Shown: positions 1 through 31,208 of the stretch, in pieces
Layout: every line of letters begins with the position of its first letter
Position numbering within the stretch: the first letter of the stretch is position 1
NCBI GenBank assembly: GCA_038045705.1
Contig: JBBSXO010000006.1
Location: 1 to 64,000, forward strand
From: Nanobdellota archaeon
GTDB lineage: Archaea; Nanobdellota; Nanobdellia; Pacearchaeales; GW2011-AR1
DNA length: 64,000 bases
Direction: 5' to 3'
Made by a program: the position numbers and the translations under genes
The notes under the pieces: model-generated
Told to the model about the DNA's origin: nothing
What the model saw: the letters and a program-made list of their open reading frames with translations, nothing else
Database searches by the model: none

Positions 1-246
1 CTCCGCGACGGGATGGTGGCGATGGTGAATTCGGCGGTGACGTGAGGGATGACGAAGGCCGACGACCTTTCGGATCAATCCGGTGCGACACTGGCGCGCA
101 TGAAGGGCCCCGCGATCTACTACGCCGCGGGCAGTGGCTACTGGCGTGTTTGGTGATACAATCAACGAATAGCGCCGGGACGACATGTAGGCAGTCGACG
201 GCATGGTAATGGCCTCGGCTTCTATTATCATGCATCGACTCGACCG

Positions 247-1701: not shown

Positions 1702-1712
1702 GGCGAGGGCAG

Positions 1713-2396: not shown

Positions 2397-2397
2397 C

Positions 2398-3672: not shown

Positions 3673-3859
3673 GAAGATCCGTTAACTAGTTTACGCACAG
3701 CCATTTAAGCGGTGAACTTGTGGCCGGCGAACATGCTGAGCCACCGTCACTCAGAATCGTAGGCATTGTGCCGCAGATTTCCAGATAAATGCATACGCAT
3801 GTGCTTGCATCTGCCTACAGCCCGCGGCACAGTGCGGCGGCACCGAATCGGAGGTTCCC

Positions 3860-4417: not shown

Positions 4418-4483
4418 TTCTTGGGCCGGGTGCGCCCCGAAATAACTCCAGCTTCCCGCGCTGCGCGCCGTCAGCTCCTCCTG

Positions 4484-5329
4484 CTAGAGGTCGAGTCGTA
4501 GACACCAATAGCGAATGGCAGCTTCCAACAACTCTCCACTCTTCCTAGCCTTCTCCAGGAGCGGACTACTCCTTGAGACACCATAGGCCCGGCGCACCGC
4601 CATTGTGTATCCATCGCACCACAGTGTCGCACAGTGCAGCACGTTATCGTAGCCGAGCCATCCGCCAGGCGCAGGGTCGTGGCCCTGTGATCTTGGAAGC
4701 GCTGGGGCAAAAAACCGGATGAAGAAACCTCCAAGTTCTCGCTCCGGGAGGTCTCGGTAGGACCTTGGTACGACCCGCCAGTTAGAACTCGACAGGATCC
4801 GCCCTGGCCGTAGCAACATCGTGTGCTGCATGTCAAATCCAGATTCATGGTACAGGGCATACCTACTGTGTAGTTCTCCTGCAGCTTGTCCCGCATCGAA
4901 TAGGGGGCGCCCATCCGGGATACCAATATCCGCAAGACTCATATCTGCTTCATCATCAATCTGCTCTCGCATGATCGGTCTCGCCATGGCATGGCCATCA
5001 CGGGGAAACTCCCAGTAGAGGCTGGCGGAGTTCGCAGACTCAGGCGTTGCTCCTGCCGCAAGGAAGCGGGGAAGAGTAATAACTGCCGCCGCGTCGATGC
5101 GCGAGGCGAGCGCAGCGTGTCGGCGCAGCGCGGTCGGCGGAGCACGGGAGTAGTAGGCCGGAAACCGCTCTGCAGCGGCCAGAACGGGAGGGCCGCTTCT
5201 CGCAGAAGGCAGTTCGTAGAGATCAACGCCAAGTGGTGATCTGCCACGGAAGCGGAGGCGCTCCCAGTCATATCGTTCACCCTCCGCTGTGAGGTGCAAC
5301 TGCCCATACTGTGTCAACCTAGTGAGCAT
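4484..5329 (-). CDS. Hypothetical protein
   Basis: 281-aa ORF with GGAGG upstream on the minus strand. Confidence 0.55.
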   Translation of the reverse strand: MLTRLTQYGQLHLTAEGERYDWERLRFRGRSPLGVDLYELPSARSGPPVLAAAERFPAYYSRAPPTALRRHAALASRIDAAAVITLPRFLAAGATPESANSASLYWEFPRDGHAMARPIMREQIDDEADMSLADIGIPDGRPLFDAGQAAGELHSRYALYHESGFDMQHTMLLRPGRILSSSNWRVVPRSYRDLPERELGGFFIRFFAPALPRSQGHDPAPGGWLGYDNVLHCATLWCDGYTMAVRRAYGVSRSSPLLEKARKSGELLEAAIRYWCLRLDL

Positions 5330-5443
5330 ATGTTACGACCTCCAAACGTCATACCACTCCCTGCATCTGTACCTTTTATTCCTTTGCTTAGATGGTGCCT
5401 TGCTTCGCAGATGGCTTTGATAGCGCTGTGAGTCGCGTTTGGC

Positions 5444-5935
5444 ATGGCTTGGTCAACCGCGCATTGGCGTCGTGTAGCAGAGGCCATGGACGCACGGTCA
5501 GCACTCGACTCACGGAGCTCAATTTCAGCGCTTGCACGACTGATCAGTCACCTCGCGCGCGCTGGTGGTTTCACGATCGATCCGCGGAATGGCATGGCTC
5601 CCTCGTTCTCTCGACGGGACTTCGTGGTGTCACTTGCCGGGCGCGAAGCGGTGTACCGTATCGCTCCGAGGGCCGCGGAGGTTGGCGCCTGGCTCTCGAA
5701 GGTGAAGTCGGCACTTGAACCACCGAGCCGCTTTGTTGGCGGGTGGATGAGTGATCTCTCTGGCCTGTACTACCTAGATGTCTCCACCGTAGTTCGCGGT
5801 CTCGAATGCGCCTTGACACTTGCGGCTTCATATGGACAGCAAGCAATTTTCCACCCGACGTCTGGTCGTACCATCTACCTACACGAGGACCATGTCGGCG
5901 GTAGAAGTGATTGCGCACAACAGGATGGGGCTTGA
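5444..5935 (+). CDS. Hypothetical protein, phage/MGE type
   Basis: 'GGW...YYLDVS...ALTLAASYGQQAIF' pattern resembling mobile-element proteins. Confidence 0.5.
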   Translation: MAWSTAHWRRVAEAMDARSALDSRSSISALARLISHLARAGGFTIDPRNGMAPSFSRRDFVVSLAGREAVYRIAPRAAEVGAWLSKVKSALEPPSRFVGGWMSDLSGLYYLDVSTVVRGLECALTLAASYGQQAIFHPTSGRTIYLHEDHVGGRSDCAQQDGA

Positions 5936-5977
5936 TTCAAGTGCACTTCGAGACACTGCGCGATGTCATGACGTGCA

Positions 5978-6304
5978 ATGCGGTATGTCGCCATGAATGA
6001 CCTGCATGAGCCAGTGGCTGATATGTCCGCTGTGCGGAATGCGTACGGCCATGACGTACTAGCCATGTTCAGGGCCTGCCAGGACTGCCTGACTGTACGC
6101 CAATGGGAAGCCTTGGTTCTTCTGTACGGCCGCCACATGACTCAGCAAGCCGTTGCAATGACTCTTGGCATCGCTCCAAGCTCCGTGAGTGGCTTGCTAA
6201 AGCGCGCGAGGCAAGTACTTGACTCTTACAGGCGCCAGGTAAGGCGCGAGGCAGTCGAGGTTAGGCGGGTTCTTGCTCGGGACCCTCTCGATTCGGAATC
6301 GTGA
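5978..6304 (+). CDS. Sigma-70 region 4-like HTH protein
   Basis: 'LTVRQWEALVLLYGRHMTQQAVAMTLGIAPSSVSGLLKRA'. Confidence 0.75.
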   Translation: MRYVAMNDLHEPVADMSAVRNAYGHDVLAMFRACQDCLTVRQWEALVLLYGRHMTQQAVAMTLGIAPSSVSGLLKRARQVLDSYRRQVRREAVEVRRVLARDPLDSES

Positions 6305-6386
6305 AAGAAGCGGTTCGATTCGATACGCAGTCTATACGTAGATAGCGTCCGTCGGCTCTGATGGGGCCAGCATTGCAAAGGCTGGC

Positions 6387-7005
6387 TCACTTTTTCAGTT
6401 CTACACCCAACCACCGCCTTCCCAGTCTTTCGGCGGCCGTCAGCGTGGTTCCAGTTCCGCAGAACGGATCGAGCACGAGGTCACCGACCCTGGAGCCTCC
6501 CTGGAGCCTGCCATGATCGCTCGCTTGGCCAGCTCGGGCGGGAACGTCGCATGATGCCCTGAACGCGAGCACGCGTGGCTGATGGTCCAGACGTCCCCAG
6601 GGTCCTTGCCCCCAGGGTGAAGCTCTGGGCGTTCCTTGATGATCGGTGGAATGTGCGCGTGCAGCGGCCCAGGGTTGCGCCATCGAGGCCCGGACTTCGA
6701 AAGGGCTCGTCGTGCCTGGGCAATTCGTTCGATTGTCGACGGCTTGTAGGGCTCGCGGATGGCATCCAGGTCGAACTGGTAGACGGCAGAGTTCGAGAGC
6801 ATGAACACGAACTCGTAGCGACAGCTCAGTCGGTCCTTGATCGCAGACGGGAGTGCGTTCGGCTTGTTCCAGATGACCGCGTTCCTGAGCCACCACCCAT
6901 CGGCCTGCATGGCAAGGGCCACGCGCCAGGGAATGCCGACGAGATCCTTTGGCTTCAGACCTGGAATGCCAGGCCTTCGATTCGGAGGCAGTCCTCGAGG
7001 GTGAT
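6387..7005 (-). pseudogene. N4/N6 site-specific DNA methyltransferase, truncated and frameshifted
   Basis: 'KDLVGIPWRVALAMQADGWWLRNAVIWNKPN', 'HHATFPPEL', then in another frame 'VLDPFCGTGTT'; no catalytic PPY motif (5' part missing); 11-bp duplication at 6488-6509 shifts the frame. Confidence 0.85.
6488..6509. repeat. 11-bp tandem duplication CCCTGGAGCCT x2
   Basis: Seen directly; coincides with the methylase frameshift. Confidence 0.9.
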
Positions 7006-7039
7006 GCGTTCCAGCGTTGCCTCCTGCCCGACGACAACC

Positions 7040-7440
7040 CGTTCTCCCAGGGCTGTTCAAGACCGTGAAGTACCGGCCAGGTTTCCCCGAACGTTTCGGC
7101 TCGCGGGAGCACGCACGCGTACACTGCGGACCGCTGTTCTACTGGTACAATGACGAGCACCACCATTCCAGCTTGGCGCTGCTCACCCCCGCCGACGTGC
7201 ATCATGGTCGTGGTGACCGGATCCTGGCCGCTCGTGACCGCGTCCTCGCGGGCGCCTTCGCCGCCACCCCGCAGCGCTTCGTCAAGCGGTTGCCCGTCGC
7301 GCCGCGACCGCCAACCGCGGTCTGGATCAACCGACCCGTCCAGGTCCACCAGCACCAGCCCTCCGACGTCCAGGCCGAGTCCGCATCGGCTGTTCACTCA
7401 TCTCTTCTTCCGTGTGTCTCATTTACGTTGACACGTTCCG
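7040..7440 (+). mobile_element. IS3-family transposase C-terminal remnant with probable right end
   Basis: 'LFKTVKYRPGFP...WYNDEHHHSSLALLTPADVHHG' resembles an IS3 transposase C-terminus; end-like TGTCTCA...TTGACA at 7415-7433. Confidence 0.75.
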
Positions 7441-7521
7441 GTTCTTGATGCGCCGATGCGCCGGCTTTTCGACCAGTGCACCGCTCAAAGTTGCGAAGCC
7501 CACCCAATCTAGACAGGCCCG

Positions 7522-10500
7522 ATGACTAGCATCTACCTATCGTCGACGTTCGAGGATCTCCGCCAATTCCGCGACGCGGTCTATCGGATCCTAAGGCGTC
7601 TGCGTTACGACGTTTGCGCAATGGAAGACTACGTCGCTAGCGAACAACGTCCGATCGACGTATGTCTGAAAGACGTAGCTTCTTGCGACGTCTACGTCGG
7701 GATTTTTGCGCAGTGCTACGGCTTCATACCGAAAACAAGCAACCCAGAATGGCTTTCAATCACCGAGCTGGAGTACCGAGAGGCAGGCGAGAAAGGCAAA
7801 CCGCGCCTGGTGTTTCTGCTGAGGGAAGGCTTGGACTGGCCCCGACTCCACAGCGATGTTCTGACCGGGAAACACGAGCGGGGCGAAAGGATTGCCAAAC
7901 TGCGACGCACACTCGAGCAGAAACACACGGTCAGCTACTTCTCGTCGGCCGACGATCTCTCAGCGCTTGTTTGTGCAGCGCTCGTGACCTGGGAGAAGAG
8001 CAGCCACGAGTTCGGTAGGCGTGATTTCTATCGCCACGTGGCGCTCCCCCCGAATCTCGTGCCGCGCAAAGCGCTTCTACGCGATCTACGGCTCGCAATC
8101 CTGACGGGATCAACTCCCCTGGCCCTAATATCGGGCGCCTCTGCGACTGCGACAGCTCTTCACGGCATGGGCGGTATCGGCAAAACTGTGATCGCCCGGG
8201 CGCTGTGCGATGACGTCGTGGTGCAGCGCGCCTTTCCAGACGGTATCCTCTGGGCGACCCTCGGAAAAGATGCCACAGAGACCGATGTCTTTTCCCACAT
8301 GACGGATTGGCTTTCGACCCTCGCCGGGAGCGGGCGTGCGGAACATAGGAGTCTGAGCGCTCTCAAGAACTCCTTGGGGCAGTTGCTCAGCAGCCGATCC
8401 TGCCTGCTTGTCATCGACGACGCCTGGCGACATTCTCTGGTCGACCATTTCAGGATCGGCGGGCCTCGGTGCCGGTTGATGCTCACAACCAGAAACGCTG
8501 AGGTCGCAGCAGAAAGTGGCGCTGATGTGCACGCTATTCCGCTGATGACACAGGACGAAGCACTAGCGCTCCTGTCATCATGGGCTGGGCGTCTGACCGA
8601 TGGCCCTGGTGACATAGGAAAAGAGATAGTCGACAGAATTGCGAGACTTCCCCTCGCGACCAAGCTTGCGGGCGTACAGTTGCGCCGGGAAGAGCCCAGG
8701 GCTTGGTTGCGGCAGCTCAACGTTGCCATGTTGAAGACAAACAGACCGGAAACGATCCACGACAGCTTGGAGTTGACATTCCGCGCTAGCATCGACGACC
8801 TGCCAGATGAAGAGCGGCTGGCCTACTCAGTCCTAGTCATCTTTAAGGAAGATCAGATGACTTCTGAGCATGTTGTCGCTAGACTTTGGCGAGCGATGTG
8901 CGGACTTGAAGCAAGCGAGTCCGCCAAGCTCTTGGACAAGCTGGCCTCTCTCGCCTTGCTCGACCTAGTTGGGAAAAACCCCAGGCGAGTCGCCCTGCAC
9001 GATCTTCTCCGGGACTTTCTTCGTGAGGACCTCCGCGAGCAAGGAGCCGCGGCAGCGCATGACGCTCTGCTTAACTCCTACTGCGTAGCTAGGTCTGCCA
9101 CAGATTGGATCGCCCTCCCTAACGATGGCTATCTGTTCGACCACTTGGCATATCACCTTCTCTCCGTAGGTCGCAGGGAGGAATTGTACGAGCTCTTGAC
9201 GGGATCGTGGGAATGGGCTGCCAGAAAGTCTACTGTTCTTGGCGGAGACCTGTCCTATGTCGCTGACCTCGACCGGACAATCGAGGCGCTGGACGGCAAA
9301 AGTGACGAAGCCTCGATCCTGCAGATCACAGGCTTGATAGCAGCAAGGGCAGCAGTACGTCACCGGGCAGAAGTCTACTCGGACCTAGACCTAGAGATTC
9401 TGTGCCTTCTTGGTCGCACTGCCGAAGCGGCCAGCCACGCCACACTCAGATCCGCCCCACTCGCACGCTGCGTTGGCCTTGCCACCATCTACGACATGCA
9501 AGTCCAACACGACGGGAAGGGGAACGACAGCTTCCTGCAGCAGGCCATCATGATCGCGACAGGGCTTGCTGAGCCGGCAATGCACTCCAAAGCACTGTGT
9601 CGTATTATTGATTCACTGTACTTGGCGGGCCTTGATACGCAAAGAGAAGCTTTTTACCCAGAAGCTCTCGCTGCGGCGAAGCGCGTCGCGGAACCCCGAG
9701 AGCGATCCGTCGCCCTGCAGGGGGTCGCAAGACGTCTCATTCAAGCTGGTCGTCTCTCGGATGCGCTGGCCGCCATGGACGGTGACATCCCAGGTAGCTT
9801 AGCGCTGGCGGCAGATGTGGTCACGGCCTTGGCGCAGCGCGGGGACTTTGATCAGGCGTTGCTCTATGCTCAAGACATCAGTTCTCAGGGAGACAAGAAC
9901 GTTGCGCTCGCCGCAATCTGCGTCGCCATGATTGCCGTTGGGCAGCATGACCGAGCCCACGAACTCGCAAGCAAGATCGAGAACTTCGAAGACCGAGTGC
10001 GCGTGACGTGCGCTCTAGCGATTCGCCATGCAAAGGCAGACCGACTCTCAGCTTGCCGTACGCTGGCACAGTTGCGCCAATCATGTTGCGCCGAGGAGCC
10101 AGCGCTTGCCCGCACCTCTTCTCTGGTGGAGGTTGCCCGGGCTCTGCACCAAATTGGGTCGGAGGATGCGGAGAGCGTTCTGAAGGAAGCAGAAGAACTG
10201 GGGAAGCAGATTGAAGACTGGCTTGACCGACAGAATGTGTTTGGCCAAATCGTCAGTTTGTTTGCACAAATGGGAAACGCCGAGAAGGCCTCTTCGCTCT
10301 CAAGCTGGGGGTTCGGTGAGCACGACTATACCGGACCTTTGGTGATCGCTAAAGGACTCGTTGACAGCGGCAAGTACGACGCGGCGATGCAATTCATAGA
10401 ACATCTCTGGCAACCTCATAACAAGCACGCGGCGGTGGCGTACGTGAGCAAGGCACTTGCTTTGTCCGGCCAGCTATCGCGCGCTCGCACGCTTTTCGAT

Positions 10501-11526
10501 GATCTAATGCCGGAGATGGTGAGGGAGCGAGGTGCCTACCTCGGAGCAACTGAGAGCATTCCCGTCGGCACAGTTTACGTCAGGAGCGGGCAGCCAACAA
10601 AGGGGATCCAGATAGCCAACCTTGGCGTGAGGGACAACACGTCGCATTGCCTCGTCTGCACCACAATGGGGGCTGTGTTGGCATCAGCCGCGTTTGTCAA
10701 GGTAGGTTTGAGGCTCGTCCGCAAGATGACGGGCTTAAGTGCTGACATTGTAGATGGCCTTTGCGCAATCTGCGTAGCGCTGCCCCCTGCGCATAGGAAT
10801 ACGGCCAAGAAGGTGCTTGCAGAAAGCTATTCACTCGCTTGCCGGATTGAAACCGAATACCAGTACGCGCGTGACGCAGCCTTCGTGCACGTGGGGGTCG
10901 CTGCCATCGCCATGGGCAAAACAGATCTCGTCGAACAGATTGTGGGGCGCATAGTCGACCAGCATGACAGGAAAAAAGTGATGATACAGCAGGCCTTGGC
11001 AAAGGCCTCGGAAAGCGAGATTGTACGTCTGGTTTCCGAGGTAGCAGACATGCTGAAGGGAGCGCAGGTCGGCAGCAAGGGCTGGGCAACTGCTCTCGAC
11101 ATTTCTCTCTGGCTTGCCCAAGCAGGACGCGCGGATGATGCCATGCGTGTGCTCAGACCGGTCTCGTCCAGCTCAGCACCGGCTGCGCATCTGGAGCCGC
11201 TCATCGTTGAGTTGGCCAAGTCAGCCAGCCACGGACAGCTGGCCGAGTTGGCGAGAAAGTTTTCTCTGGAAGACGCTTGTCGTATGGCGCAGGCCATACT
11301 CAAAGTAGGGGAGGAGCTGGCAAGCAGTAGCACGCGCAAGATCGTCGAGAACATCGAGTTCTGGGGGCCAGACCAAGTAATGGCCGCGGTTTCCCAGTGG
11401 GCTCCGATGTACGATAACATCGCGGGTGGCGTAGCGGTCAAGGCCGTCAGACGCGCGGCCAAGATAGTGGGCGCAATCCATCCTGGTTGGCAGGAGGTCA
11501 GCGCGGTGATAGAAGATATCGCATGA
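7522..11526 (+). CDS. NLR-like STAND NTPase: DUF4062 + NB-ARC (Apaf-1-like) + TPR-like repeats
   Basis: DUF4062 'IYLSSTFEDL...YGF...SITELEYREA'; Walker A GMGGIGKT; Walker B LLVIDD; 'LTTR'; 'RLPLA'; MHD-like 'LHDLLRD'; 'DGYLFDHLAYHL'; helical repeats at C-terminus. Confidence 0.9.
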   Translation: MTSIYLSSTFEDLRQFRDAVYRILRRLRYDVCAMEDYVASEQRPIDVCLKDVASCDVYVGIFAQCYGFIPKTSNPEWLSITELEYREAGEKGKPRLVFLLREGLDWPRLHSDVLTGKHERGERIAKLRRTLEQKHTVSYFSSADDLSALVCAALVTWEKSSHEFGRRDFYRHVALPPNLVPRKALLRDLRLAILTGSTPLALISGASATATALHGMGGIGKTVIARALCDDVVVQRAFPDGILWATLGKDATETDVFSHMTDWLSTLAGSGRAEHRSLSALKNSLGQLLSSRSCLLVIDDAWRHSLVDHFRIGGPRCRLMLTTRNAEVAAESGADVHAIPLMTQDEALALLSSWAGRLTDGPGDIGKEIVDRIARLPLATKLAGVQLRREEPRAWLRQLNVAMLKTNRPETIHDSLELTFRASIDDLPDEERLAYSVLVIFKEDQMTSEHVVARLWRAMCGLEASESAKLLDKLASLALLDLVGKNPRRVALHDLLRDFLREDLREQGAAAAHDALLNSYCVARSATDWIALPNDGYLFDHLAYHLLSVGRREELYELLTGSWEWAARKSTVLGGDLSYVADLDRTIEALDGKSDEASILQITGLIAARAAVRHRAEVYSDLDLEILCLLGRTAEAASHATLRSAPLARCVGLATIYDMQVQHDGKGNDSFLQQAIMIATGLAEPAMHSKALCRIIDSLYLAGLDTQREAFYPEALAAAKRVAEPRERSVALQGVARRLIQAGRLSDALAAMDGDIPGSLALAADVVTALAQRGDFDQALLYAQDISSQGDKNVALAAICVAMIAVGQHDRAHELASKIENFEDRVRVTCALAIRHAKADRLSACRTLAQLRQSCCAEEPALARTSSLVEVARALHQIGSEDAESVLKEAEELGKQIEDWLDRQNVFGQIVSLFAQMGNAEKASSLSSWGFGEHDYTGPLVIAKGLVDSGKYDAAMQFIEHLWQPHNKHAAVAYVSKALALSGQLSRARTLFDDLMPEMVRERGAYLGATESIPVGTVYVRSGQPTKGIQIANLGVRDNTSHCLVCTTMGAVLASAAFVKVGLRLVRKMTGLSADIVDGLCAICVALPPAHRNTAKKVLAESYSLACRIETEYQYARDAAFVHVGVAAIAMGKTDLVEQIVGRIVDQHDRKKVMIQQALAKASESEIVRLVSEVADMLKGAQVGSKGWATALDISLWLAQAGRADDAMRVLRPVSSSSAPAAHLEPLIVELAKSASHGQLAELARKFSLEDACRMAQAILKVGEELASSSTRKIVENIEFWGPDQVMAAVSQWAPMYDNIAGGVAVKAVRRAAKIVGAIHPGWQEVSAVIEDIA

Positions 11527-11719
11527 ATAGAGCTTGTACTTGTTCCCGAGTTGTGAACTCTGCTAGACCTCAAACAAGCGTTCGCGGACGACGGTGATAC
11601 CGTATTAACGCGTCCCGAAAACCCGACAGAAGATTGACAGACTGTCATCTTGTGCCGCGCCGCGGCCAGCTCAGGTCCCAGGTTATTCATGTTGTCAGTG
11701 GGCAAGTCAGTGGTGGTGG

Positions 11720-11998
11720 ACCGCGGCGTCCGTACCGCGGCTATGTCTGCGCGCGCTGCGCACGACGTTGGGCACCGAGCTTGCTCGCCAGGGTGTCGCT
11801 CCCCAGTTGGCGCAGAAGATCATGCGACACTCCGACTACCGCATCACGATGGAGCACTACGTGTCTCTCGGCATCGGAGAAGCGGCTGCGGCGATCCAGA
11901 AGCTGCCCGGAACCAAGGGTGGGAACAGCAAGGAGCACTGGCCTCGGATCACCCCAGCAGAAACCCCAGCACACCACAGCAGATTCCCCAGCAGTTAG
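11720..11998 (+). pseudogene. Tyrosine recombinase (integrase) C-terminal remnant
   Basis: 'ALRTTLGTELARQGVAPQLAQKIMRHSDYRITMEHY' retains R, H and catalytic Y; N-terminal part absent. Confidence 0.8.
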
Positions 11999-12162
11999 TG
12001 CGCGGTTCGGTGCCTGACCCGTGCGACGAAGAGCGTTGGCACACCCGGCAGGACTTGAACCTGCAACCCTCAGATCCGAAGTCTGAAGAACCGATCACCA
12101 AGCCGAGGCAGGGTAATGACTTCGGCGCTTCTGCTGAGTGTCCTCAGCAGAAACCCCAGCAC
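11955..12162 (+). repeat. Direct repeats CAGCAGAAACCCCAGCAC (11955-11972, 12145-12162; variant at 11977-11994) flanking a tRNA fragment
   Basis: 18-bp exact match seen; candidate integrase arm-type sites. Confidence 0.7.
12037..12086 (-). other. 3' half of tRNA-Arg(TCG), att-site core
   Basis: Minus strand TCAGA-CTTCGGA-TCTGA-GGGTT-GCAGG-TTCAAGT-CCTGC-CGGGTGTG-CCA: anticodon arm, T arm and CCA; 5' half absent. Confidence 0.85.
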
Positions 12163-12485
12163 CCGCGTCGCGACTCAATGCGGCAGCGTGCCCCAGAATA
12201 CGACCTCCAGTTGATCGTCGAAGAGTGGCCGGCGCTCCCCGACGCGATCAAGGCAGGGATCGTGGCCCTGGTGAAGGCGACGAAAGCGTGATCCGAATTC
12301 CCGTTGACGCGCGTAGAAGACAAGGACTGCTGCAAGCGTTTCTGGTTGCGACTGGCCGAGACGGACGGAATGCTCAACTACGTGCCAACACCTCACAACC
12401 CCGAAGCCGATGGACGTATTACAAGACAGCTGAGACTACGCCAACCCTTCAACTTGGCCTCTCACTGAAGGGTAAGGTCTAAATC

Positions 12486-13442
12486 ATGAACTACACTCTC
12501 AGGTATCCAATCCGATTCGCCCCCGACCAGGAGGTCAGCGACATAGAGCAACGATCGCAGACAGTCGATGGCAGAGAGTTTCGATTCGCACAACAGGGGC
12601 CTTGCCTCGCTATTCTTGTTGAAGGTTTTCCGGACGAACGTGCAGCATTGGAGTATCTTCCGCGGCTCCGATCTGCACTGTGTTGGTCTGCAATAGACCA
12701 TGGATTGGTATATCCTGCTGAGTCTGAGCCTGGTCGGGTTTACTACCCAGAAGACCCAATACTTGCTGCGACCAATATTCGCAAGGGTACCGGATTGGGC
12801 GTCGACCGTGTAGGAGGAATGGCTAGTGGCGATTCCCCTTGCGTCTACCGAACTGGCACGCACATCATATTCTTCAACGCACCGGACGGCAAGTTAATGG
12901 CCGGCAGACCCTTTTCTCGTTTCAAGGAGTCTCTACTTGAGGGGCTAGGACACGCTACTCCTGCCGCATTAGCTGACCAACGGCTTTGCACTGCCCTCGC
13001 GCTCTTCTGTGCACGCCTACATGAACACTCTCCAAACGCTCGCTTTCTTGCGCTGATGATGGCACTCGAAGTTCTGACAGAGCAAGCGCGCAAAGCACCG
13101 ATTGCCCTCGATATGCTTAAGCGTTGGGATGCCGAGCTTCGACAACTCCTTGAGTGCGCAAATACTGAGGAGGACCGAGAAGCGCTGCTCTCTCTTCAGC
13201 GCGAAGTAGTTTTCCGAAAAGAAGCATCGATCCGCTCTCGAGTGAACGCATTAGTTGCCAAAGCGTTCCAGCAACCTCGTAGTGGAAAGGACGTACAGCG
13301 TGCTGTCGAGATCTATGATCTTCGCGGAGCACTGCTCCACGATGGAAGAGTTGATGCTGATACCCTTACCAAGGCAAGTGCCGATGCGGAGAGACTTGTC
13401 GCCGTGCTTCTCAAACATAGGTTGCGCGCGCATGGTTCATGA
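12486..13442 (+). CDS. ApeA-like/HEPN domain protein (putative RNase defence effector)
   Basis: 'FLALMMALEVL' helix and C-terminal 'YDLRGALLHDG' (RxxxxH). Confidence 0.7.
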   Translation: MNYTLRYPIRFAPDQEVSDIEQRSQTVDGREFRFAQQGPCLAILVEGFPDERAALEYLPRLRSALCWSAIDHGLVYPAESEPGRVYYPEDPILAATNIRKGTGLGVDRVGGMASGDSPCVYRTGTHIIFFNAPDGKLMAGRPFSRFKESLLEGLGHATPAALADQRLCTALALFCARLHEHSPNARFLALMMALEVLTEQARKAPIALDMLKRWDAELRQLLECANTEEDREALLSLQREVVFRKEASIRSRVNALVAKAFQQPRSGKDVQRAVEIYDLRGALLHDGRVDADTLTKASADAERLVAVLLKHRLRAHGS

Positions 13443-13575
13443 ACTTGTTCCTTTGCACTACCGTCGGCGTGACAAACGCGTCTACGTGGCGCGTTCGGTG
13501 ATGAGAAACGATAAGAAGCACGGTCCACTGTGTTCAGGTCTAGTAGGGTCGTTCTTGAGGACGATACCAATTCCT

Positions 13576-13869
13576 CTACGACGCCACATCACGATCGTCC
13601 CCATGACCCGAATTGGAATCGCCTCTACGAATCTCTCGTTGGTAGCCCTCTGGATCGTGATCGCGCATCCATAGCAACCGGAATACCTGGCTCACTGCAT
13701 TCTTCATGATCTTCTTCATGTTTGCGTCTGTGACGCGGCTATACCCCTCCTCATTTGCGCACGTCGGGCATGTCATGCCTGCTTGCAGATCCTTAATAGG
13801 TCCGTTCCTAAATGCAAGAGCCACGATCGCCTTTGCTTCGCGCACCAACTCCTTGTCAAACTCTACCAT
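13576..13869 (-). CDS. Hypothetical protein with CxxC
   Basis: 97 aa; 'AFRNGPIKDLQAG..CPTC'. Confidence 0.55.
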   Translation of the reverse strand: MVEFDKELVREAKAIVALAFRNGPIKDLQAGMTCPTCANEEGYSRVTDANMKKIMKNAVSQVFRLLWMRDHDPEGYQREIRRGDSNSGHGDDRDVAS

Positions 13870-14071
13870 GCTGCTGGTCAGAGCCCGCGCCTTATAGGCA
13901 TTCTGCTATTCCAAGTAGGATATTACGACGCATGCGATCAAATGTAGATGCCCAATCGTACAGTTTCAATCACCACAAAGCATAAATAGTAGAATAGCGC
14001 CGAGAACTAATAGCATTCAAGAGCCTTGCGCTGAAGTAGTCCAGCAGACAGGACTGCTATTGTCGTCGGTG

Positions 14072-14084
14072 GAGCTACCCCCGC
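14072..14084 (-). other. Possible 5' stub of a tRNA gene cut at the compositional junction
   Basis: Minus strand GCGGGGGTAGCTC resembles a tRNA 5' end; TTTAAA lies 25-30 nt upstream (14109-14114); only 13 nt. Confidence 0.4.
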
Positions 14085-14129
14085 TTAAAATTAGATAATT
14101 AAAATCACTTTAAAATGTTTCTGTATGAA

Positions 14130-14558
14130 TTAATTCCACACAACTGCAAGGAATCCAGCAAGTTTCAAATTAACCAACCAGTAAAGTCCATTAAGTGCAA
14201 ATAATCCCCAAGACTTTCCTTCCCACAATACACTTCCTAAAAGAGTAGTACATGCAAAAAATGCTAACCATATCCAAAAACCAATAACTGCTCCTTGAAC
14301 AGGAATTGTAATTCCAAGAAGAGAAATCAACCCAGTAAGGACATAAACCATGACAAAAGTACCTATAAAGTTAAGAACCATCTGCTTCCACATTCCAGAC
14401 ATTCCTTTCTTCTTAGCCTTCGCAACTTCTAAAGCAGGAATCTTAGATAATTTTATCCAAAGCTTTCCAAACAAAGGACCATACCATAAAAATCCTATGA
14501 CAAAGAGAATAACTGTAATTAGCAATGTAGAATTCAGATTAACAATCCCATCAAACAT
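14130..14558 (-). CDS. DUF1761-like membrane protein
   Basis: 'GFLWYGPLFGKLW' and about 4 TM segments. Confidence 0.75.
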   Translation of the reverse strand: MFDGIVNLNSTLLITVILFVIGFLWYGPLFGKLWIKLSKIPALEVAKAKKKGMSGMWKQMVLNFIGTFVMVYVLTGLISLLGITIPVQGAVIGFWIWLAFFACTTLLGSVLWEGKSWGLFALNGLYWLVNLKLAGFLAVVWN

Positions 14559-25378: not shown

Positions 25379-26368
25379 TTATTTGACGTTTCCGCGTGCG
25401 TTAGAAATTACTCTATTAATAGCTACAGTTATTTTTTCTACAGAAGGTAAATAGTAATCTTCATGAAGTCTTAAAGGCACAATAGTATCAAACCCTGTAA
25501 CTCTTTCAATAGGAGCCTCAAGCGAGTAAAGTGCTTTCTCGTTAATGCGGGCAATAATTTCGCTAGCAAGCCCTAAGGTTTTAGGAGCCTCCTGAACGAT
25601 CACACACTTACCTGTTTTCTTTACAGAATTAACTATTGTCTCAGTATCTAGCGGACTAAGCGTTCGCAAATCAATAAGTTCAACAGAAATATCTTTTATT
25701 TTTTCAATAGCTTCCTTTGCAGTCTTTATCCATGCACCATAAGCAATTAAAGTAACGTCTGTACCTTGTTTGATTATATTAGCTTTTCCAAGAGGTATGG
25801 CATAAGCTTCTTCAGGAACTTCTTCCTTAATGGCGCGGTAAATCTTTTTAGGTTCAAAAAATATTACTGGATCTTTTTCTCGCAGTGCAGAAATAAGTAA
25901 ACCTTTAGCATCATAAGGTCCAGAAGGCATTACAACTTTCAATCCAGGCGTATGAATAAAATAAGATTCTGGAGAGTCAGAATGATGTTCAAGGGCTTTT
26001 ATCCCTCCACCAATTGGACACCGGACAATTATCGGAGTTGTAAACCTCCCACGACTTCGATTTCTCATCCTAGAAGCGTGATTAACAAGCTGATTAATAG
26101 CGGGGAAAATAAAACCCTCAAATTGAATCTCACAAACAGGTTTCAATCCAACAAGGGACATTCCAATTGAAGTTCCAATAATTCCAGATTCAGCAAGAGG
26201 AGAGTCAATTACTCTTTTATTTCCATATTCTTTAGCAAGTCCATCAGTAACTCGAAAAACGCCTCCATCTTCACCTACATCTTCACCAATAATCAGAATG
26301 TTCTTATCTCTTTTCATTTCCAAACGCAAAGCGTCATTCAGAGCTTCAACCATATTACAGACAACCAT
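25379..26368 (-). CDS. pdhB: 2-oxoacid (pyruvate) dehydrogenase E1 beta
   Basis: 'GEDVG..GGVFRVT', 'DSPLAESGIIG', 'EIQF', 'EHHS'. Confidence 0.93.
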   Translation of the reverse strand: MVVCNMVEALNDALRLEMKRDKNILIIGEDVGEDGGVFRVTDGLAKEYGNKRVIDSPLAESGIIGTSIGMSLVGLKPVCEIQFEGFIFPAINQLVNHASRMRNRSRGRFTTPIIVRCPIGGGIKALEHHSDSPESYFIHTPGLKVVMPSGPYDAKGLLISALREKDPVIFFEPKKIYRAIKEEVPEEAYAIPLGKANIIKQGTDVTLIAYGAWIKTAKEAIEKIKDISVELIDLRTLSPLDTETIVNSVKKTGKCVIVQEAPKTLGLASEIIARINEKALYSLEAPIERVTGFDTIVPLRLHEDYYLPSVEKITVAINRVISNARGNVK

Positions 26369-26496
26369 TATATCACCATCTCAAAATATAGTCCTTATAG
26401 TAGTTAATAAATTTTCATCAAACTGAATATAAAATATTACCTTTATTAAGTAACAACAATAGAAAAGCTTAAATACTCTTTTTTAATGAAAAGCAC

Positions 26497-27306
26497 ATGG
26501 CAGTCAGTATATATGTTAGCCCAAGCGGAATTGAATCAGCAGTAACTAGTGGTGTAAATTTTAAAGAATCTTTAGCTGAATTAAAGAAAATAGGTCATAA
26601 AGTAATAACTTTAAGAGAAAATGCTAAACTAAGAATTCAACAAGGAAAAGAAGCAGATATATCTCAAAATGGTAATTATGTTATGCAAGGCAACGTCTAC
26701 CTTCAAGGAGAGACAGGGATCATTGTTGCAGAATCTCCATATTTAACTAATGCTACAATGCTTCGAAAAGCCATTAAAGAAAATAATCAAGGAAGATACT
26801 TTAGTACTCCAAATAGAAAGCTATACGATCAATTTCATAAACAAGCTCAAGAAGATACTTCAAAAGACCCAAGAGAACGCAGAGCTGTTTTCATGCCTTC
26901 AGACGGAAGATTTGCAATTTCACAAAGAGAAAATCCAGAGATTTTTGAATTTTTATTGGGAGAATTTGGTCAAAGTTATCTAGAATTTGTTAAACAAGAT
27001 TCTCTAGATTTCTTTCCAGTATCTCAAGAAACTCTTAAATCTTATTCAGGCACAGTTCCAACCCAGTTGTGGTTCGGGCTTGGCGGCGGCAGGTCTTACC
27101 TTGTTGGCGACTTCTACCTCGACCTCGGCGGCCTTAGGGTTCGTGGGGTGCGTTCAGTAGTGAGCGCCACAGGCGCGAACACTTCGCAAATTTCTATCCC
27201 TCAAGGAATCGAACTTTATACTCCTTCACAAATCGCAGAAGCTCTTGAAGGCATGAAACTTACAGGATTAGAAGCTCAGTTAATGAAGAAATTAAGAAAA
27301 AGATAA
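26497..27306 (+). CDS. DGR target (variable) protein
   Basis: Contains the VR (27066-27150) matching the TR; ends VR with CLec-like 'RVRGV'; no signal peptide seen. Confidence 0.9.
   Translation: MAVSIYVSPSGIESAVTSGVNFKESLAELKKIGHKVITLRENAKLRIQQGKEADISQNGNYVMQGNVYLQGETGIIVAESPYLTNATMLRKAIKENNQGRYFSTPNRKLYDQFHKQAQEDTSKDPRERRAVFMPSDGRFAISQRENPEIFEFLLGEFGQSYLEFVKQDSLDFFPVSQETLKSYSGTVPTQLWFGLGGGRSYLVGDFYLDLGGLRVRGVRSVVSATGANTSQISIPQGIELYTPSQIAEALEGMKLTGLEAQLMKKLRKR
27066..27150 (+). repeat. DGR variable repeat (VR)
   Basis: Aligns to 27592-27679 with 21 substitutions at TR adenines, one 3-nt deletion and one codon with non-A differences. Confidence 0.95.
27164..27176 (+). other. Post-VR hairpin GCGCC-ACA-GGCGC (candidate homing stem-loop)
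   Basis: 5-bp GC stem with 3-nt loop 13 nt after the VR; absent after the TR. Confidence 0.65.
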
Positions 27307-27369
27307 TCTCTAGAATATCTTCATTATACTACATTAATTCTTAAAAACAATTATTTCTTTTTAAAAATG

Positions 27370-27694
27370 CCTCGGTCTCTCTGCGGAGTGCAGAGCAAAA
27401 GAGGCCACACGCATTTGTATTAGTCTTGTTTAAGCAAGCAGTAAAATACAACTGCAACAATTAGTATGCTGTCCGGAAAGCGAAACTTGAAGCAGTGGTG
27501 GTGAGTGTTTACATTCAGGCAAGTGATATAAGCATTTTTGAATGTAGGCACGAAGTGAGAAATCACAAATTAGGTACAAAAGCTACTCTGTGTTGTGGTT
27601 CAACAGGCTTGGCGACAACAGGTCTAACCTTAATGGCAACAACTACAACCTCAACAACGACAATAGGGTTCGTGGAATGACCTCTAGACCGAGG
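27370..27694 (+). ncRNA. Structured DGR template RNA enclosing the TR
   Basis: Terminal 9-bp pairing CCTCGGTCT/AGACCGAGG, several internal hairpins with G-U pairs and a GAAA tetraloop; TATA-like TTAAAAA at 27341-27347. Confidence 0.75.
27592..27679 (+). repeat. DGR template repeat (TR)
   Basis: AAC/AAT-rich (28 adenines) copy of the VR just upstream of the RT. Confidence 0.95.
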
Positions 27695-27702
27695 ATTACA
27701 AT

Positions 27703-28796
27703 ATGAAAACCTACAACAATCTGTATTTGCAAGTTTATTCAATGGGCAATCTTACTCTCGCTTGGAGAAAAGCAAGAAGAGGAAAAACAGCCAGACAAGA
27801 TATTCTAGAATTTGATAAGGATGTTGAGAAAAATCTTCTTAAGTTGTATAATGAATTGAAAGATAAAACTTATTCTCCTGAAAATCTCGTTAATTTTGTT
27901 TTGCGAGATCCAAAAACAAGGAAGATTTCCAAATCAGCTTTCAGAGATAGGGTAATACATCATGCTTTAATGAACATAATTGCTCCTTTATTTGAAAAGA
28001 CCTTTATTCACGATTCTTGTGCTGGCAGATTGGGAAAAGGAACTATCCTTGCATTGCAAAGATTTCAATATTTCTTAAGAAAGGTTTCATGCAATCTTAA
28101 AAATAATAAAAATAAGTTTAATGATAGAAATTATGTAAATGGATATTGTCTCAAGGCAGACATTAAACAATATTTCCAAAATATAAATCATGATATACTT
28201 ATCTCAATAATAAAAATGAAGATTAAAGATGAAAGTGTTATATGGTTAATTGAGCAAGTGCTTAATGCGAACTTTGGAAACAAGAGAGAGAGAGAGTACT
28301 TACAGATTGGTTGGGTAATAAAGGAATGCCTTTAGGAAATTATACCTCTCAATTCTTTGCCAACCTTTATCTTAATGAATTAGATCAATTTGTGAAACAC
28401 AAATTAAAAGCGAAATATTACATCAGATATGTAGATGATTTTGTAATTCTTCATGAATCTAAATTACAGTTAATAAAATGGAAAGAAGAAATAAATCAAT
28501 TTCTCAAAGAAAAACTAAAAATTGAGTTACATCCTCAAAAATCAAGAATAATTCCTTTATCTCAAGGAGTGGATTTTGTAGGTTTTAGGAACTTTGCACA
28601 TTTTAAGTTGCTTAGAAAAAGAAATATTAGAAAAATGAATCAAAAGATTGAATTATATAAAAATAATAAGAAAGACTTTAGCTCATTAAAAGAAAGTTAC
28701 CAAGGCTGGCAAGGTTATGCTAAGTGGGCTAACACTCATGAATTAAGACAAGAAGTTAAGAAAAAGATAATAGATGCTCTCTGGGATAAAATATAA
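27703..28796 (+). CDS. DGR reverse transcriptase, split into two ORFs by a frameshift at (AG)7
   Basis: 'DPKTRKI', 'FRDRVIHHAL', 'KADIKQYFQNINH', 'GMPLGNYTSQ', 'YIRYVDDF', 'GVDFVG'; removing 2 nt from the repeat fuses both ORFs into 363 aa. Confidence 0.92.
28283..28296 (+). repeat. (AG)7 microsatellite inside the RT gene
   Basis: Seen directly at the frame break. Confidence 0.95.
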
Positions 28797-28819
28797 CTGA
28801 GTAGAAAGTTTATAAAAAT

Positions 28820-29842
28820 ATGCAATATATCAATAATATGTCAAAAGCACGCTGTTTAATATCAGAAACTCATGACCCATTTTTTAATTTAGCAACTGAA
28901 GACTGGATTTTCAAAGACATGTCCACAGAAGAACACATACTGTTTCTTTGGAGAAATAATAAAACTGTAGTCATAGGAAGAAACCAAAATCCATGGGCAG
29001 AATGTAATATTAACAAATTAGGAGAAAATAAAGTTAATTTAGTAAGAAGACAGAGTGGAGGTGGAGCAGTATTCCAAGATTTAGGAAACACCAACTTTAC
29101 ATTTCTTTCGTCAAGAAGTGAATATGACAGAAAGAGAAATTTTGATATTATAATTAGAGCATTAGAGAAATTTGGAATAAAAGCAGAACAATCAGGTAGA
29201 AATGATATTTTAGTAGATGGTAAGAAAATATCTGGCAGTGCCTTTAAGGAAAATCCAGACAGAGCATTCCATCACGGAACTCTCCTAATAAATGTAAATT
29301 TAAATGAGTTAGCAGATTATCTTACACCTTCCCCAAAAAAGCTTTTAGCAAAAGGCACAACTTCAGTAAGATCAAGAGTTGCAAATTTAACTGAATTTAA
29401 TCAAGAAATCTCTCATGAAAAATTAACCGAAGCAATAATTGAAGAATTCTTTAAAACATATGAATCAGAAAAGAAAATAGAAAGCCTAAATAATGAAAAT
29501 CTAAAAATCATTCCAGAATTAAATAATTATTATCAATTTCTAAAAAGTAATGATTGGTGTTTTGGAGAAACGCCTCAATTTCAGCACCAGTTAACAGAAA
29601 GATTTGACTGGGCAACAGTGGATTTGCATCTAGACACAGATGGGGGAAAAATAAGCAAGGCAAAGCTATTCTCAGACTGTCTTGATACTCAGTTAATAGA
29701 AGAAATAGAAAGAGCAATTCACAACATTAATTATCACCCAGAACATATTTCAAATAGTTTAGAATTAGTAAAAGAACGGTTACCTCATGCATCAAGCCAA
29801 ATCCGAGATTTTCAAGATTGGATAAAGAGAGAAGTCACATAA
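28820..29842 (+). CDS. lplA: Lipoate-protein ligase A
   Basis: 'NLATED', 'IGRNQNPW', 'RRQSGGGAVFQD', 'KKISGSA', 'HHGTLL'. Confidence 0.93.
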   Translation: MQYINNMSKARCLISETHDPFFNLATEDWIFKDMSTEEHILFLWRNNKTVVIGRNQNPWAECNINKLGENKVNLVRRQSGGGAVFQDLGNTNFTFLSSRSEYDRKRNFDIIIRALEKFGIKAEQSGRNDILVDGKKISGSAFKENPDRAFHHGTLLINVNLNELADYLTPSPKKLLAKGTTSVRSRVANLTEFNQEISHEKLTEAIIEEFFKTYESEKKIESLNNENLKIIPELNNYYQFLKSNDWCFGETPQFQHQLTERFDWATVDLHLDTDGGKISKAKLFSDCLDTQLIEEIERAIHNINYHPEHISNSLELVKERLPHASSQIRDFQDWIKREVT

Positions 29843-29871
29843 TTTAAATACTGTTAGATAATCAAAAAAAC

Positions 29872-30550
29872 GTGTTTAAATTAAAAGTAGACTTTAATCA
29901 AGATGGAATTGAATCCGCAGTAGTTACAGACCAGATTTGATAAAGTATTAAGAACCTTAAATCCTAATGGTTATGATGTTGTTTCTCTACAAATTAATGC
30001 TTATTTAAGAATAATTGAAGGAAGAAAAGCAACAGTTACTAAAAAAGGGAACTATGTATTGCATGGAATTGCTTATGTAGAAAATAGCTATCCATTATTT
30101 ATAAGAGAATCTCCCCTCATTACAGATCCAAACCTAGCAGAACTAGCAGTAGAAGCAAATAAGAAAATGGCGTATTTTAGAACAGAAAATAGAGATTTGT
30201 ATGAACAGAGTCTTGCAATTGCTCGTGATGAAGAAGGAATAGAACCATTTAAAAGAAGAGTTTTAGTCCTGCCATCAAAAGAACCATTTAAGTTATCAGA
30301 TATAGATAATTCTGAGACTTTTGAAGGAATCTTCGGAGAGCATAGGGGAGATTATCTTCAATTTCTAAGAATGAACAGTCTAATTTTCTACCCCGTTAGA
30401 ACTGATGAAATAGATTCAAAAGAAAGAACATTGTTGACACAAATGTGGTTTGGCAAACGATATGGTTCCAGTAGATCAAACCTATGCGGTAATGATATTT
30501 CACTAAATAAACGCAGAAGTGTTAGAGGAATAAAGAAGTTATCTGCTTAA
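29872..30550 (+). pseudogene. Paralog of the DGR target protein with degenerate VR, frameshifted near codon 21
   Basis: GTG start 'MFKLKVDFNQDGIESAVVTD', then +1 frame 'RFDKVLRTL...NAYLRIIEG...GNYVLHG...TQMWFG...RSNLCGN...VRGI', collinear with 26497-27306. Confidence 0.8.
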
Positions 30551-30673
30551 GTTCACTCTAGTTCTCAAACAACCCACATTATTCAAGAGTATTCCAAAAC
30601 ATTTAGAAATCACATGATTTTATACGTATTTTTATCAGTAAGATTTATATACTATTTACATATTATCATACGT

Positions 30674-31009
30674 ATGGATTTAAGTAAGGAAGACATAATA
30701 AGAATCAATAAAGGCTTTGGAGGATATCCAAGAAACGAATCTAGTCTTGACTTTGCAATTAAACAACAAGAAAGTAAAAAACTTGGAAATTACAAAAAAC
30801 TAGCTTATCTATTTAGATCAATACTTGTAGATCATCCATTTAGCGATGGGAATAAACGTACTGCAATGTTTTTAGCTCTAGCTTTTGCAGATGAAAACCA
30901 TAAAACTGTTAATAGAGATTTATTACTTCACCATATATTATCAATAGCTTCGAAAAATCTAACTCAAATTCGAGCAATCGAGGAGCGTCTAAAAAATGCA
31001 ATTAACTGA
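30674..31009 (+). CDS. Doc/Fic-family toxin
   Basis: 'HPFSDGNKRTA' Doc motif. Confidence 0.85.
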   Translation: MDLSKEDIIRINKGFGGYPRNESSLDFAIKQQESKKLGNYKKLAYLFRSILVDHPFSDGNKRTAMFLALAFADENHKTVNRDLLLHHILSIASKNLTQIRAIEERLKNAIN

Positions 31010-31208
31010 AGAAAAAATAAAACATATCTTGCACAAATATAAAGAAATGTTTGAAATACTTGAGCAATATGATAAGACAAGAGAATGGCCCATAGGAAGA
31101 GCAAAAATAAATCTTACTTTAAGCAAGAGAGTGATTCAGAAACTAAGAAGAATAAAAGAGAAAACAGGTAAATCAATATCTCTAATTATTGAAGAAGCAG
31201 TTTCTTAA
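30996..31208 (+). CDS. Small RHH-like protein, putative antitoxin
   Basis: 'INLTLSKRVIQKL...TGKSISLIIEEAV'; overlaps the Doc stop. Confidence 0.65.
   Translation: MQLTEEKIKHILHKYKEMFEILEQYDKTREWPIGRAKINLTLSKRVIQKLRRIKEKTGKSISLIIEEAVS

Follow-up and report, generated by a model that had tools for sequence, protein, structure and literature searches.

An RNA carrying the Rfam RT-16 motif encloses the template repeat of an archaeal diversity-generating retroelement without a detectable Avd

Background

Positions 1 to 64,000 of the forward strand of contig JBBSXO010000006.1, from assembly GCA_038045705.1 of a Nanobdellota archaeon (this whole stretch of 64,000 nucleotides is called the window below), contain a diversity-generating retroelement (DGR), and the subject of this work is the RNA encoded between its target gene and the gene for its reverse transcriptase (RT). 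On the plus strand, the target open reading frame (ORF) is followed by a gap of 285 nucleotides (nt), by the template repeat (TR), by another 23 nt and then by the RT. A first-pass annotation, made from the sequence itself, interpreted this region as a DGR lacking the accessory protein Avd, in which a plus-strand RNA of ~325 nt with ends paired in the manner of retrons encloses the TR and takes the place of Avd, and regarded it as a candidate for an undescribed system.

DGRs without an accessory gene have been reported before: in the survey of Wu 2018 (PMC5758913), 75 of 372 DGRs had none, a search for avd in trans found none, and Avd-independent homing was proposed. Here we combine structural, comparative and literature analyses of the RNA in the window and of its homologs, and weigh what it may do.

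Results

The DGR cassette

The target gene (26497..27306, plus strand) encodes a protein of 269 amino acids (aa), for which we found no Pfam family and no relative in the PDB (best E 0.51). Its 3' end holds the variable repeat (VR; 27066..27150, plus strand), which ends in TGGGGTG, a sequence resembling the IMH element (named for initiation of mutagenic homing), and 14 nt past the VR a GC hairpin, GCGCC-ACA-GGCGC, can be read in the sequence (27164..27176, plus strand). The TR, 88 nt long (27592..27679, plus strand), ends in the IMH*-like TGGAATG, so that the IMH at the VR end and the non-identical IMH* at the TR end read GTGGGGTG and GTGGAATG, respectively. Of the mismatches between the two repeats, 21 fall on TR adenines and 2 on other bases, and there is one indel of 3 nt. 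The RT is distributed over an N-terminal frame (27703..28335) and a C-terminal frame (28311..28796), both on the plus strand, overlapping each other and each matching RVT_1. The best PDB match of an RT of the same family is bRT 8ub7, over the full length (E 4.9e-37), while retron-type RTs match it far more weakly (E 2e-19). Since the TR and the VR differ almost only at TR adenines, the locus is a genuine DGR; besides the adenine bias of the repeats, it has a DGR-clade RT adjoining the TR and the IMH/IMH* pair.

An ORF at 30059-30550 encodes another, shorter version of the target protein, a paralogue with 34% identity (E 3e-31). As the DNA of its C-terminal region does not match the TR, we rejected it as a carrier of a second VR; it may be either an old or decayed target or a copy that is not diversified.

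Fold of the RNA in the window

All the RNA helices listed by the first-pass annotation can be read directly in the sequence. The minimum free energy (MFE) fold of 27365-27700 has an energy of -99 kcal/mol, compared with -83.3 +/- 4.9 kcal/mol for 100 shuffled sequences (z -3.23; 0 of 100 shuffles were as good), and five elements are common to the MFE and the centroid structures, namely helix P1, the hairpin that follows its 5' strand, helix P2, a stem of 13 base pairs (bp) and a hairpin with a GAAA loop. The features described next, in 5' to 3' order, all lie on the plus strand; the counts of loci and aligned RNAs refer to the homologs introduced further below.

The 5' strand of P1, CCTCGGTCT (27370..27378), for which the sequence, the fold, the helix test and the column pairs all speak, is followed by the hairpin P1a, CUCUGC-GGAGU-GCAGAG (27379..27395), seen in the sequence and in the fold. 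The 5' strand of P2 (27400..27407), which we propose as the primer strand, has as its core AGAGG (27400-04), complementary to CCTCT (27681-85), and ends in the invariant A27407. A linker CAC (27408..27410), part of the conserved motif YACAYG, whose ACA is invariant in 21 of 21 aligned rows, leads to the 5' strand of P3 (27411..27420), which is backed by the Rfam alignment, the MAFFT alignment and the column pairs. Then comes the hairpin P4, CUUG-UUUAAG-CAAG (27425..27438), and after it the conserved A-rich motif GUAAAAUACA (27441..27450). The motif was found in 39 of 43 loci, in all 39 of which it is preceded by a hairpin of at least 4 bp; the hairpins directly 5' of it have a mean z of -3.5. 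The first-pass annotation had paired TTGTATT with AATACAA here around an inner CTTG/CAAG; the letters are present and the inner stem at 27425-38 holds, but TTGTAT pairs with 27574-83 to form P3, and AAAAUACA is, according to the comparative data, a conserved and unpaired A-rich motif. P5, a long stem with an internal loop of AGUA (27463-66) and GAAA (27482-85), occupies 27451..27496 and is supported by the alignments.

A lineage-specific insertion of ~70 nt (27501..27572) holds the 13-bp stem (27505-17/27539-51) and the hairpin GTGA-GAAA-TCAC (27555-66). Both elements are thus present as annotated, but in a part that most homologs lack: it is an insert in the Rfam alignment, all but one of the 21 aligned RNAs are wholly or nearly empty at this place, and contigs of relatives from the same samples skip 27500-27571 and 27503-27564. 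The 3' strand of P3 (27574..27583) is followed by UAC, a 5-nt linker and the TR. The 3' strand of P2 (27678..27685), the proposed template strand of a priming duplex, is supported by motif-anchored pairing, by column pairs and by held-out loci, and is directly succeeded by the 3' strand of P1, AGACCGAGG (27686..27694), which contains GAGG 8 nt before the RT start codon. Because the 3' strand of P3 precedes the TR and the 3' strand of P2 succeeds it, the TR is a loop held between these two helices.

As the first-pass annotation had noticed, a TATA-like box, CTTAAAAA (27340..27347, plus strand), lies upstream and begins 30 nt before P1. When homologous loci are lined up at the first base of P1, a purine run and then a TATA-like box appear upstream, and the best TATA-like octamer begins at -34..-28 relative to P1 in 25 of 34 loci. 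The usual distance from an archaeal TATA box to the start of transcription would put the RNA start at or just before P1, and we infer an archaeal promoter whose transcript would begin there.

The 5' domain is Rfam RT-16

The Rfam family RT-16 (RF03019) matches 27370-27591 over the full length of its model (positions 1-158), with 68 bits compared to a gathering score of 50 and on the plus strand only. The match covers the 5' two-thirds of the RNA and the model ends exactly where the TR begins; therefore, it is devoid of the 3' strands of P1 and P2. P3 and P5 covary in the Rfam model and in our data alike, whereas the first 34 positions are drawn in the model as one local hairpin, of whose 14 pairs 4 are non-canonical in the window, where the strands in question pair over a long range.

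RT-16 is one of the motifs RT-1 to RT-19 of Weinberg et al. 2017 (PMC5737381); in its available text, that paper gives no function for RT-16 and does not discuss it by name, and only speculates that further RT motifs belong to DGRs. Our search of the full-text literature found no published function for RT-16, and the papers found to name it, on Rfam 15 and on JAR3D, merely list it. An internal loop of RT-16, assigned here to P5, appears in the JAR3D paper (PMC13085918) as a match of the sarcin-ricin type, and so does one of RT-10. The covariance model of Phage_DGR (RF03022, formerly RT-10), which gave 104.7 bits for BPP-1 as a positive control, had no match at E <= 1 in 26000-30000 or in 27200-27800.

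Homologous loci

We sampled 151 genomes of the phylum, all from one class and 0.5-1.9 Mb in size. RT-16 occurs in 35 of them, in 32 above the gathering score. A first set comprised 31 loci; we excluded L031, which runs into the end of its contig, and L020, whose TR end could not be recognized, and used the other 29. The remaining 15 matches were held out for independent tests, with 14 that could be anchored (L040 has no YACAYG).

The architecture is constant: a target ORF, 30-240 nt, RT-16, the TR, 20-45 nt and the RT. A VR was located upstream in 27 of the 28 loci that have upstream sequence, with a total of 390 mismatches at adenines and 32 at other positions. The TR is precisely framed: in 27 loci, its 5' edge falls between -9 and +6 nt from the end of the Rfam model; relative to a conserved GGAAU, its 3' edge lies 6-7 nt past the G in 15 of these 27, and in 5 others the TR match stops early owing to an extra hairpin in the TR. 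The combination of TGGGGT in the VR with TGGAAT in the TR recurs in most loci.

Several peculiarities of individual loci deserve mention. The TRs of L004, L005, L006, L009, L011 and L027 contain a hairpin of 15-25 nt (CUCG-loop-CGAG) that is missing from the matching VR, so either the hairpin is removed from the template by processing ahead of copying, or it is passed over by the RT. In L032 and L049, the RT and the RT-16/TR RNA are on opposite strands, and in L012, L024, L027 and L041 only the first 30-60 codons of the RT are left. RTs are truncated or missing at several homologous loci; RT-16/TR cassettes often persist beyond their RT, or are served by one in trans. The genome to which the window belongs has a second RT-16/TR/RT cassette, at 116104-116278 of contig 6 (L002, 1501-1675), with a P1 of its own, GCCCTAGC/GCTAGGGC; its RT is cut by the contig end, and no VR was found within 900 nt upstream.

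Covariation of the closing helices

Inspection by eye reveals, at nearly every locus, a helix between the start of the RNA and the bases just before the RT start, with a different sequence in each. RNAalifold, given 21 full-length RNAs aligned with MAFFT, retrieved P3 and P5 and failed to retrieve P1 and P2; as the variable 5' region was misaligned, we used pairing tests that require no alignment, in which strands swapped between loci serve as the null, and pairs named by alignment column.

In the first 29 loci, the duplex energy between the 5' and 3' zones was -23.3 kcal/mol for the locus' own strands and -15.5 kcal/mol for swapped ones (0 of 10,000 permutations as good), and the best ungapped P1 helix scored 21.3 compared to 16.3 (0 of 20,000). 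P2, when placed solely by its flanking motifs YACAYG and GGAAU, had 5.28 of 7 positions paired compared to 3.98 for swapped strands (0 of 20,000), slid registers reached 1.5-3.4 pairs, and three positions showed several types of pairs. The 14 held-out loci gave 22.8 compared to 17.3 for P1 (0 of 20,000) and 4.71 compared to 4.10 for P2 (281 of 20,000).

For the count of column pairs, 21 RNAs trimmed to the ends of P1 were aligned with MAFFT. Both sides were found to change in 9 of 9 pairs of P1 (88.6% of cells paired), a count that leans towards P1, because the 21 loci had been chosen for an ungapped P1 already seen in them (L005, L006, L012, L013, L016, L026, L028 and L030 were omitted); the corresponding values are 5 of 5 pairs and 83.9% for P2, 9 of 11 and 92.6% for P3, and 7 of 7 and 95.2% for P5. 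Slid versions of the helices had only 35-46% of cells paired. Furthermore, MFE folds of single sequences with generous flanks, made blind to P1, have at least 8 long-range pairs between the 5' and 3' regions in 36 of 43 loci.

P2 extends by two pairs beyond its earlier drawing: one joins the Y of YACAYG to the R that follows GGAAU, and the next joins the invariant A to the U of GGAAU. The former pair is U:A in 34 of 43 loci and C:G in 8, the exception being L027, which becomes G:C if shifted by one base; the latter is formed in 42 of 43. Taken together, these results strongly support P1, the 5' hairpin and P2 as real structures that recur with different sequences at 43 homologous archaeal loci. 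The end pairing postulated by the first-pass annotation is therefore conserved by covariation among homologs, and its reading of a plus-strand RNA of ~325 nt around the TR is supported.

Comparison with known systems

In the bRT-Avd particle of Bordetella (bioRxiv 10.1101/2023.10.23.563531), whose RNA, from phage BPP-1, is made up of the avd 3' end, the TR and the spacer (Sp), residues TR117-129 pair with Sp47-56, which places the priming A56 next to the initiating G117. A linker of G57 and C58 is followed by a duplex of Sp59-70 with avd369-379, just upstream of the TR, termed "cPRT Stop", then by a stem-loop (Sp71-78), by A80 and A81 with A-minor contacts and a single-stranded Thumb Ring, and lastly by a long stem that has two interior loops and binds bRT; between the TR and the primer strand lies the Avd-binding stem-loop, Sp3-33. 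We checked this numbering against the BPP-1 record. For DGRs with Avd and for five archaeal genomes, the same study (Handa et al.) describes a scan for the stop duplex that reached 40 nt upstream and 100 nt downstream of the TR.

The order of elements can be compared across three RNAs. The Rfam consensus of Phage_DGR reads Avd stem-loop, GUGGUCAGC, stop strand, GCUUCGGC, AAuACAuuacua (AAuACA) and a stem with GAGUA...GAAA; that of RT-16 reads GgCUACACGC, hairpin, AUAAAAUaCA, AGUA..GAA; and the archaeal RNA has the P2 5' strand ending in ...GGGC-Y-A, CAC, the P3 5' strand, P4, AUAAAAUACA, P5 with AGUA...GAA(A), the P3 3' strand, the TR and the P2 3' strand. As in the Bordetella RNA (PDB 8ub7 series), the TR of the archaeal RNA is looped out between two adjacent duplexes. 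In both, the primer strand, a proposed one in the archaeal RNA, ends in an A paired to a U next to the template end, and a linker of 2-3 nt (CAC here, GC in Bordetella) connects it to a duplex whose other strand sits just 5' of the TR; in both, there follow a small stem-loop, adenosines or AAUACA, and a long stem with a loop of the AGUA/GAAA type. In contrast to Bordetella, the archaeal module is located 5' of the TR and not 3' of it. In the Bordetella RNA, the opening falls between the RT-binding stem and the stop strand upstream of the TR, a place at which the archaeal RNA is closed, whereas the latter is open at the place of the Avd-binding stem-loop, and there P1 and its hairpin clamp the ends. 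With the same partners in the same order but the module 5' of the TR, the archaeal RNA can be mapped onto the Bordetella type as its circular permutation, an assignment that we infer from the correspondence of these elements. As the RT is closely related to bRT over its whole length, conserved contacts between RT and RNA are plausible.

The cassette also resembles the DGRs of Nanoarchaeota (DUSEL4) described in Paul 2015 (PMC4372165), which share the target-TR-RT order, the IMH/IMH* pair TGGGGT/TGGAAT and, still within the target gene, a GC hairpin that follows the VR. These DGRs and 'Architecture A' of Wu 2018 (PMC5758913) have orphan target proteins and no avd homologue, as is the case here. 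Paul 2015 drew attention to ORFs between target and RT that resemble Avd in isoelectric point and size, whereas we find a covarying RNA at this place and no conserved ORF; the available text of both papers describes no RNA structure, unlike the structured RNA presented here. Bordetella DGRs (architecture B) have avd, in contrast to the locus in the window, where neither the gap nor the genome yielded one.

With retron msr/msd RNAs and their a1/a2 repeats, the RNA shares ends that pair around a template, and internal priming by a 2'-OH is the chemistry proposed for both. The retron analogy of the first-pass annotation is, however, superficial: the RT belongs to the DGR clade and is bRT-like, the TR and VR bear the marks of adenine mutagenesis, the order of elements is that of a DGR spacer RNA, and there is no effector context of the msDNA type. 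Nor can the system be called undescribed, as the RT-16 motif, the IMH/IMH* pair of Nanoarchaeota and the Avd-less DGR architecture are already known; what appears to be new is the closed topology of the RNA and its mapping onto the mechanism of Bordetella.

Discussion

A model for priming and stopping

We consider it reasonably probable that the RNA is a circularly permuted non-coding RNA of an Avd-less DGR of the archaeal (DPANN) type, in which P2 acts as the template:primer duplex and P3 as the stop. The molecule would consist, from its 5' end, of the first strand of P1, the hairpin, the first strand of P2 with its invariant terminal A, CAC, the RT-16 core ending in the second strand of P3, the TR, and the second strands of P2 and P1, up to the RT start codon. 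A27407, paired to U27678, would provide the priming hydroxyl; the RT would copy the TR from its 3' end with misincorporation at adenines, until P3, P4 and the adenosines stop it at the 5' edge of the TR. P5 and the A-rich strand would hold the RT, and the open RNA ends clamped by P1 would replace the Avd-binding stem-loop, which fits the absence of Avd. A takeover of the role of Avd by the RNA is plausible. The fuller proposition, that RT-16, the TR and the tail constitute a natural permutation that works as a two-component system without Avd, with the invariant A of YACAYG priming through its 2'-OH, P3, P4 and the adenosines stopping the RT, and P1 serving as a clamp in place of the Avd-bound stem-loop, is more tentative; we would hold the chances for and against it to be fairly close, with some advantage to the latter.

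Several observations weigh against the proposed mechanism. The transcript ends, the priming site and even the expression of the RNA are deduced from sequence. The VR always has GG where the TR has the AA of GGAAU, so either these bases are not transferred or initiation takes place 5' of this AA. The held-out loci give a weaker result in the anchored P2 test, 5 of 43 loci have no long-range pairs in their MFE fold, and the anchor motif is absent altogether from L040. The likeness to Phage_DGR consists of element order and short motifs, and the shared AAUACA could by itself be due to chance. In the window, the RT is frameshifted, and the TR and VR have the indel and the two non-adenine differences mentioned above. 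Finally, part of the conservation of P1 may serve translation, because its 3' strand often resembles a ribosome-binding site (GAGG-, AGGAC- or GGGAC-like, ending 1-19 nt before the RT ATG).

A possible regulation of RT translation

The last point can be developed into an explanation of its own, in which P1 and P2 are mainly a regulatory fold of the RT leader that hides the ribosome-binding site or stabilizes the RNA, RT-16 merely recruits the RT, and priming occurs in another way, e.g. from nicked target DNA or from a separate primer. In the window, the ATG of most genes is preceded at ~27 nt by a TATA-like box, a layout suggestive of leaderless mRNAs, and a tetramer resembling a Shine-Dalgarno sequence precedes only 9 of 36 long ORFs; with most genes apparently leaderless, the RT with its leader of 330 nt would need a special start signal, which P1 would mask. 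On the other hand, L032 and L049, whose RT is encoded on the opposite strand, still have a P1 of 9-11 bp, and P1 is also retained at loci with mere RT remnants, so that masking of the start site cannot be its only role. Besides, no regulatory reason suggests itself for the geometry of P2, with an invariant A paired next to the TR end and three bases before P3, but this geometry matches the Bordetella priming site. We regard such a mainly regulatory fold as unlikely, although P1 may also set whether an individual RNA is translated or copied, in addition to the part that the priming model assigns to it.

Is Avd really missing?

Another explanation holds that the DGR is Avd-less in appearance only, and that a divergent helper encoded elsewhere and missed by the Avd family PF05635 is still needed, the RNA being no substitute for it. 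No match to PF05635 was found at E <= 1 in the genome of the window, which is 91.5% complete; as Avd proteins are poorly conserved (Wu 2018, PMC5758913), such a search can miss an Avd, and this, together with the incompleteness of the genome, also counts against our preferred mechanism. PF05635 genes do exist in 37 of the 151 genomes of the class (31 over the cut-off), and the family is therefore detectable there. They are not, however, associated with the RNA: no match was found at E <= 0.01 in 26 of the 35 genomes with RT-16, and the frequency of matches is alike with RT-16 (9 of 35, 8 of them over the cut-off) and without it (28 of 116). In the genomes with RT-16 the matches are always on other contigs, and six of these loci, inspected by eye, proved to be stand-alone genes with no RT alongside. 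Wu 2018 (PMC5758913) likewise found no trans avd for avd-less cassettes.

The gap itself does not encode an accessory protein either, in line with the first-pass annotation: no ORF is conserved in it among 29 loci, the longest ORFs having a median of 44 aa, lying on mixed strands and consisting of unrelated low-complexity sequences. An ORF of 61 aa at 27495-27680 was considered as a stand-in for Avd and rejected, as it has no Pfam match, overlaps the TR and is not conserved. A hidden helper thus seems to us distinctly unlikely, and the designation of the locus as a DGR without Avd stands, with none nearby and none found in the genome at the completeness given.

A broken or a switchable RT?

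The reading frame of the RT in the window is broken in an (AG)7 repeat (28283..28296, plus strand), so this copy is currently either switched off or decaying. The repeat is of variable length, as a contig of another sample (run X4), identical over 811 nt, has (AG)8. It lies in a loop that is an insertion relative to bRT and that contains a G-run of at least 7 or a dinucleotide repeat in 9 of the 31 RTs long enough to judge, i.e. the RTs of the window and of L007, L008, L010, L011, L016, L018, L030 and L050, with (AG)7, G7-G27 or (CT)9. Of the nine repeat-bearing RTs, six are out of frame at the loop, compared to 2 of 22 without a repeat. The repeat could therefore act as an on/off switch of the DGR by slippage, although decay is also possible; a search of the literature for repeat-switched DGR RTs returned no relevant title. 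The RT of the second cassette (L002) is interrupted roughly at the position of the same loop by the contig end.

Variants of the VR were not found in contigs of four other runs, a kind of data from which rare variants drop out. Contigs of two other samples break in the VR or just past it, at 27085-27108 (run X5) and 27154-27204 (run X6), with both flanks covered; this may be a weak hint of VR heterogeneity or a simple assembly gap.

That the element is a dead relic with no function in this genome, its helices persisting only because decay is recent, would accord with the frame break, the two non-adenine TR/VR mismatches and the 3-nt indel, the lack of VR variants and the truncated or missing RTs of several homologous loci, but it is improbable, given that the break falls in a repeat of variable length with an (AG)8 counterpart, that repeats in the same loop of other RTs resemble reversible switching, and that, apart from the break, the two RT halves are open and conserved and the RNA scores above the family threshold.

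Genomic context

The genome, that of a very small archaeon of groundwater, comprises 844 kb in 10 contigs. It encodes the TATA-binding protein (TBP), a family that in a control search occurred only in the four archaeal controls, and we conclude from this gene and from the promoter layout that the genome is archaeal; a search for small-subunit ribosomal RNA in it found none. The window is not uniform in composition: the GC content is 0.52-0.62 at 1-13900 and ~0.30 at 14400-64000, with a drop across ~13,800-14,400, and the start of the contig may be either foreign DNA or a chimeric assembly join. The DGR is flanked by genes for PDH E1-beta and LplA, and the flanks vary among loci. Downstream of the RT by 1.8 kb, at 30614-31208, an ORF of the Fic/DOC family overlaps a small ribbon-helix-helix ORF, an arrangement resembling a toxin-antitoxin pair.

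Conclusions

How Avd-less DGRs copy their template has been an open question since surveys put them at about a quarter to a third of all DGRs. The RT-16 family of DGRs offers a testable answer, in the form of an RNA of ~250-330 nt whose helices are mapped and which has candidates for both the priming nucleotide and the stop element; the many natural sequence variants of the RT-16 loci already serve as compensatory mutants. An orphan Rfam family would thereby gain a function and a fuller structure, and the mechanism known from Bordetella is suggested to be older and more plastic than the order of genes implies. If the proposal is true, adenine mutagenesis by two components, RT and RNA, would operate in roughly one in four archaea of the class, and such a two-part module would make a simpler tool than RT, Avd and RNA together.

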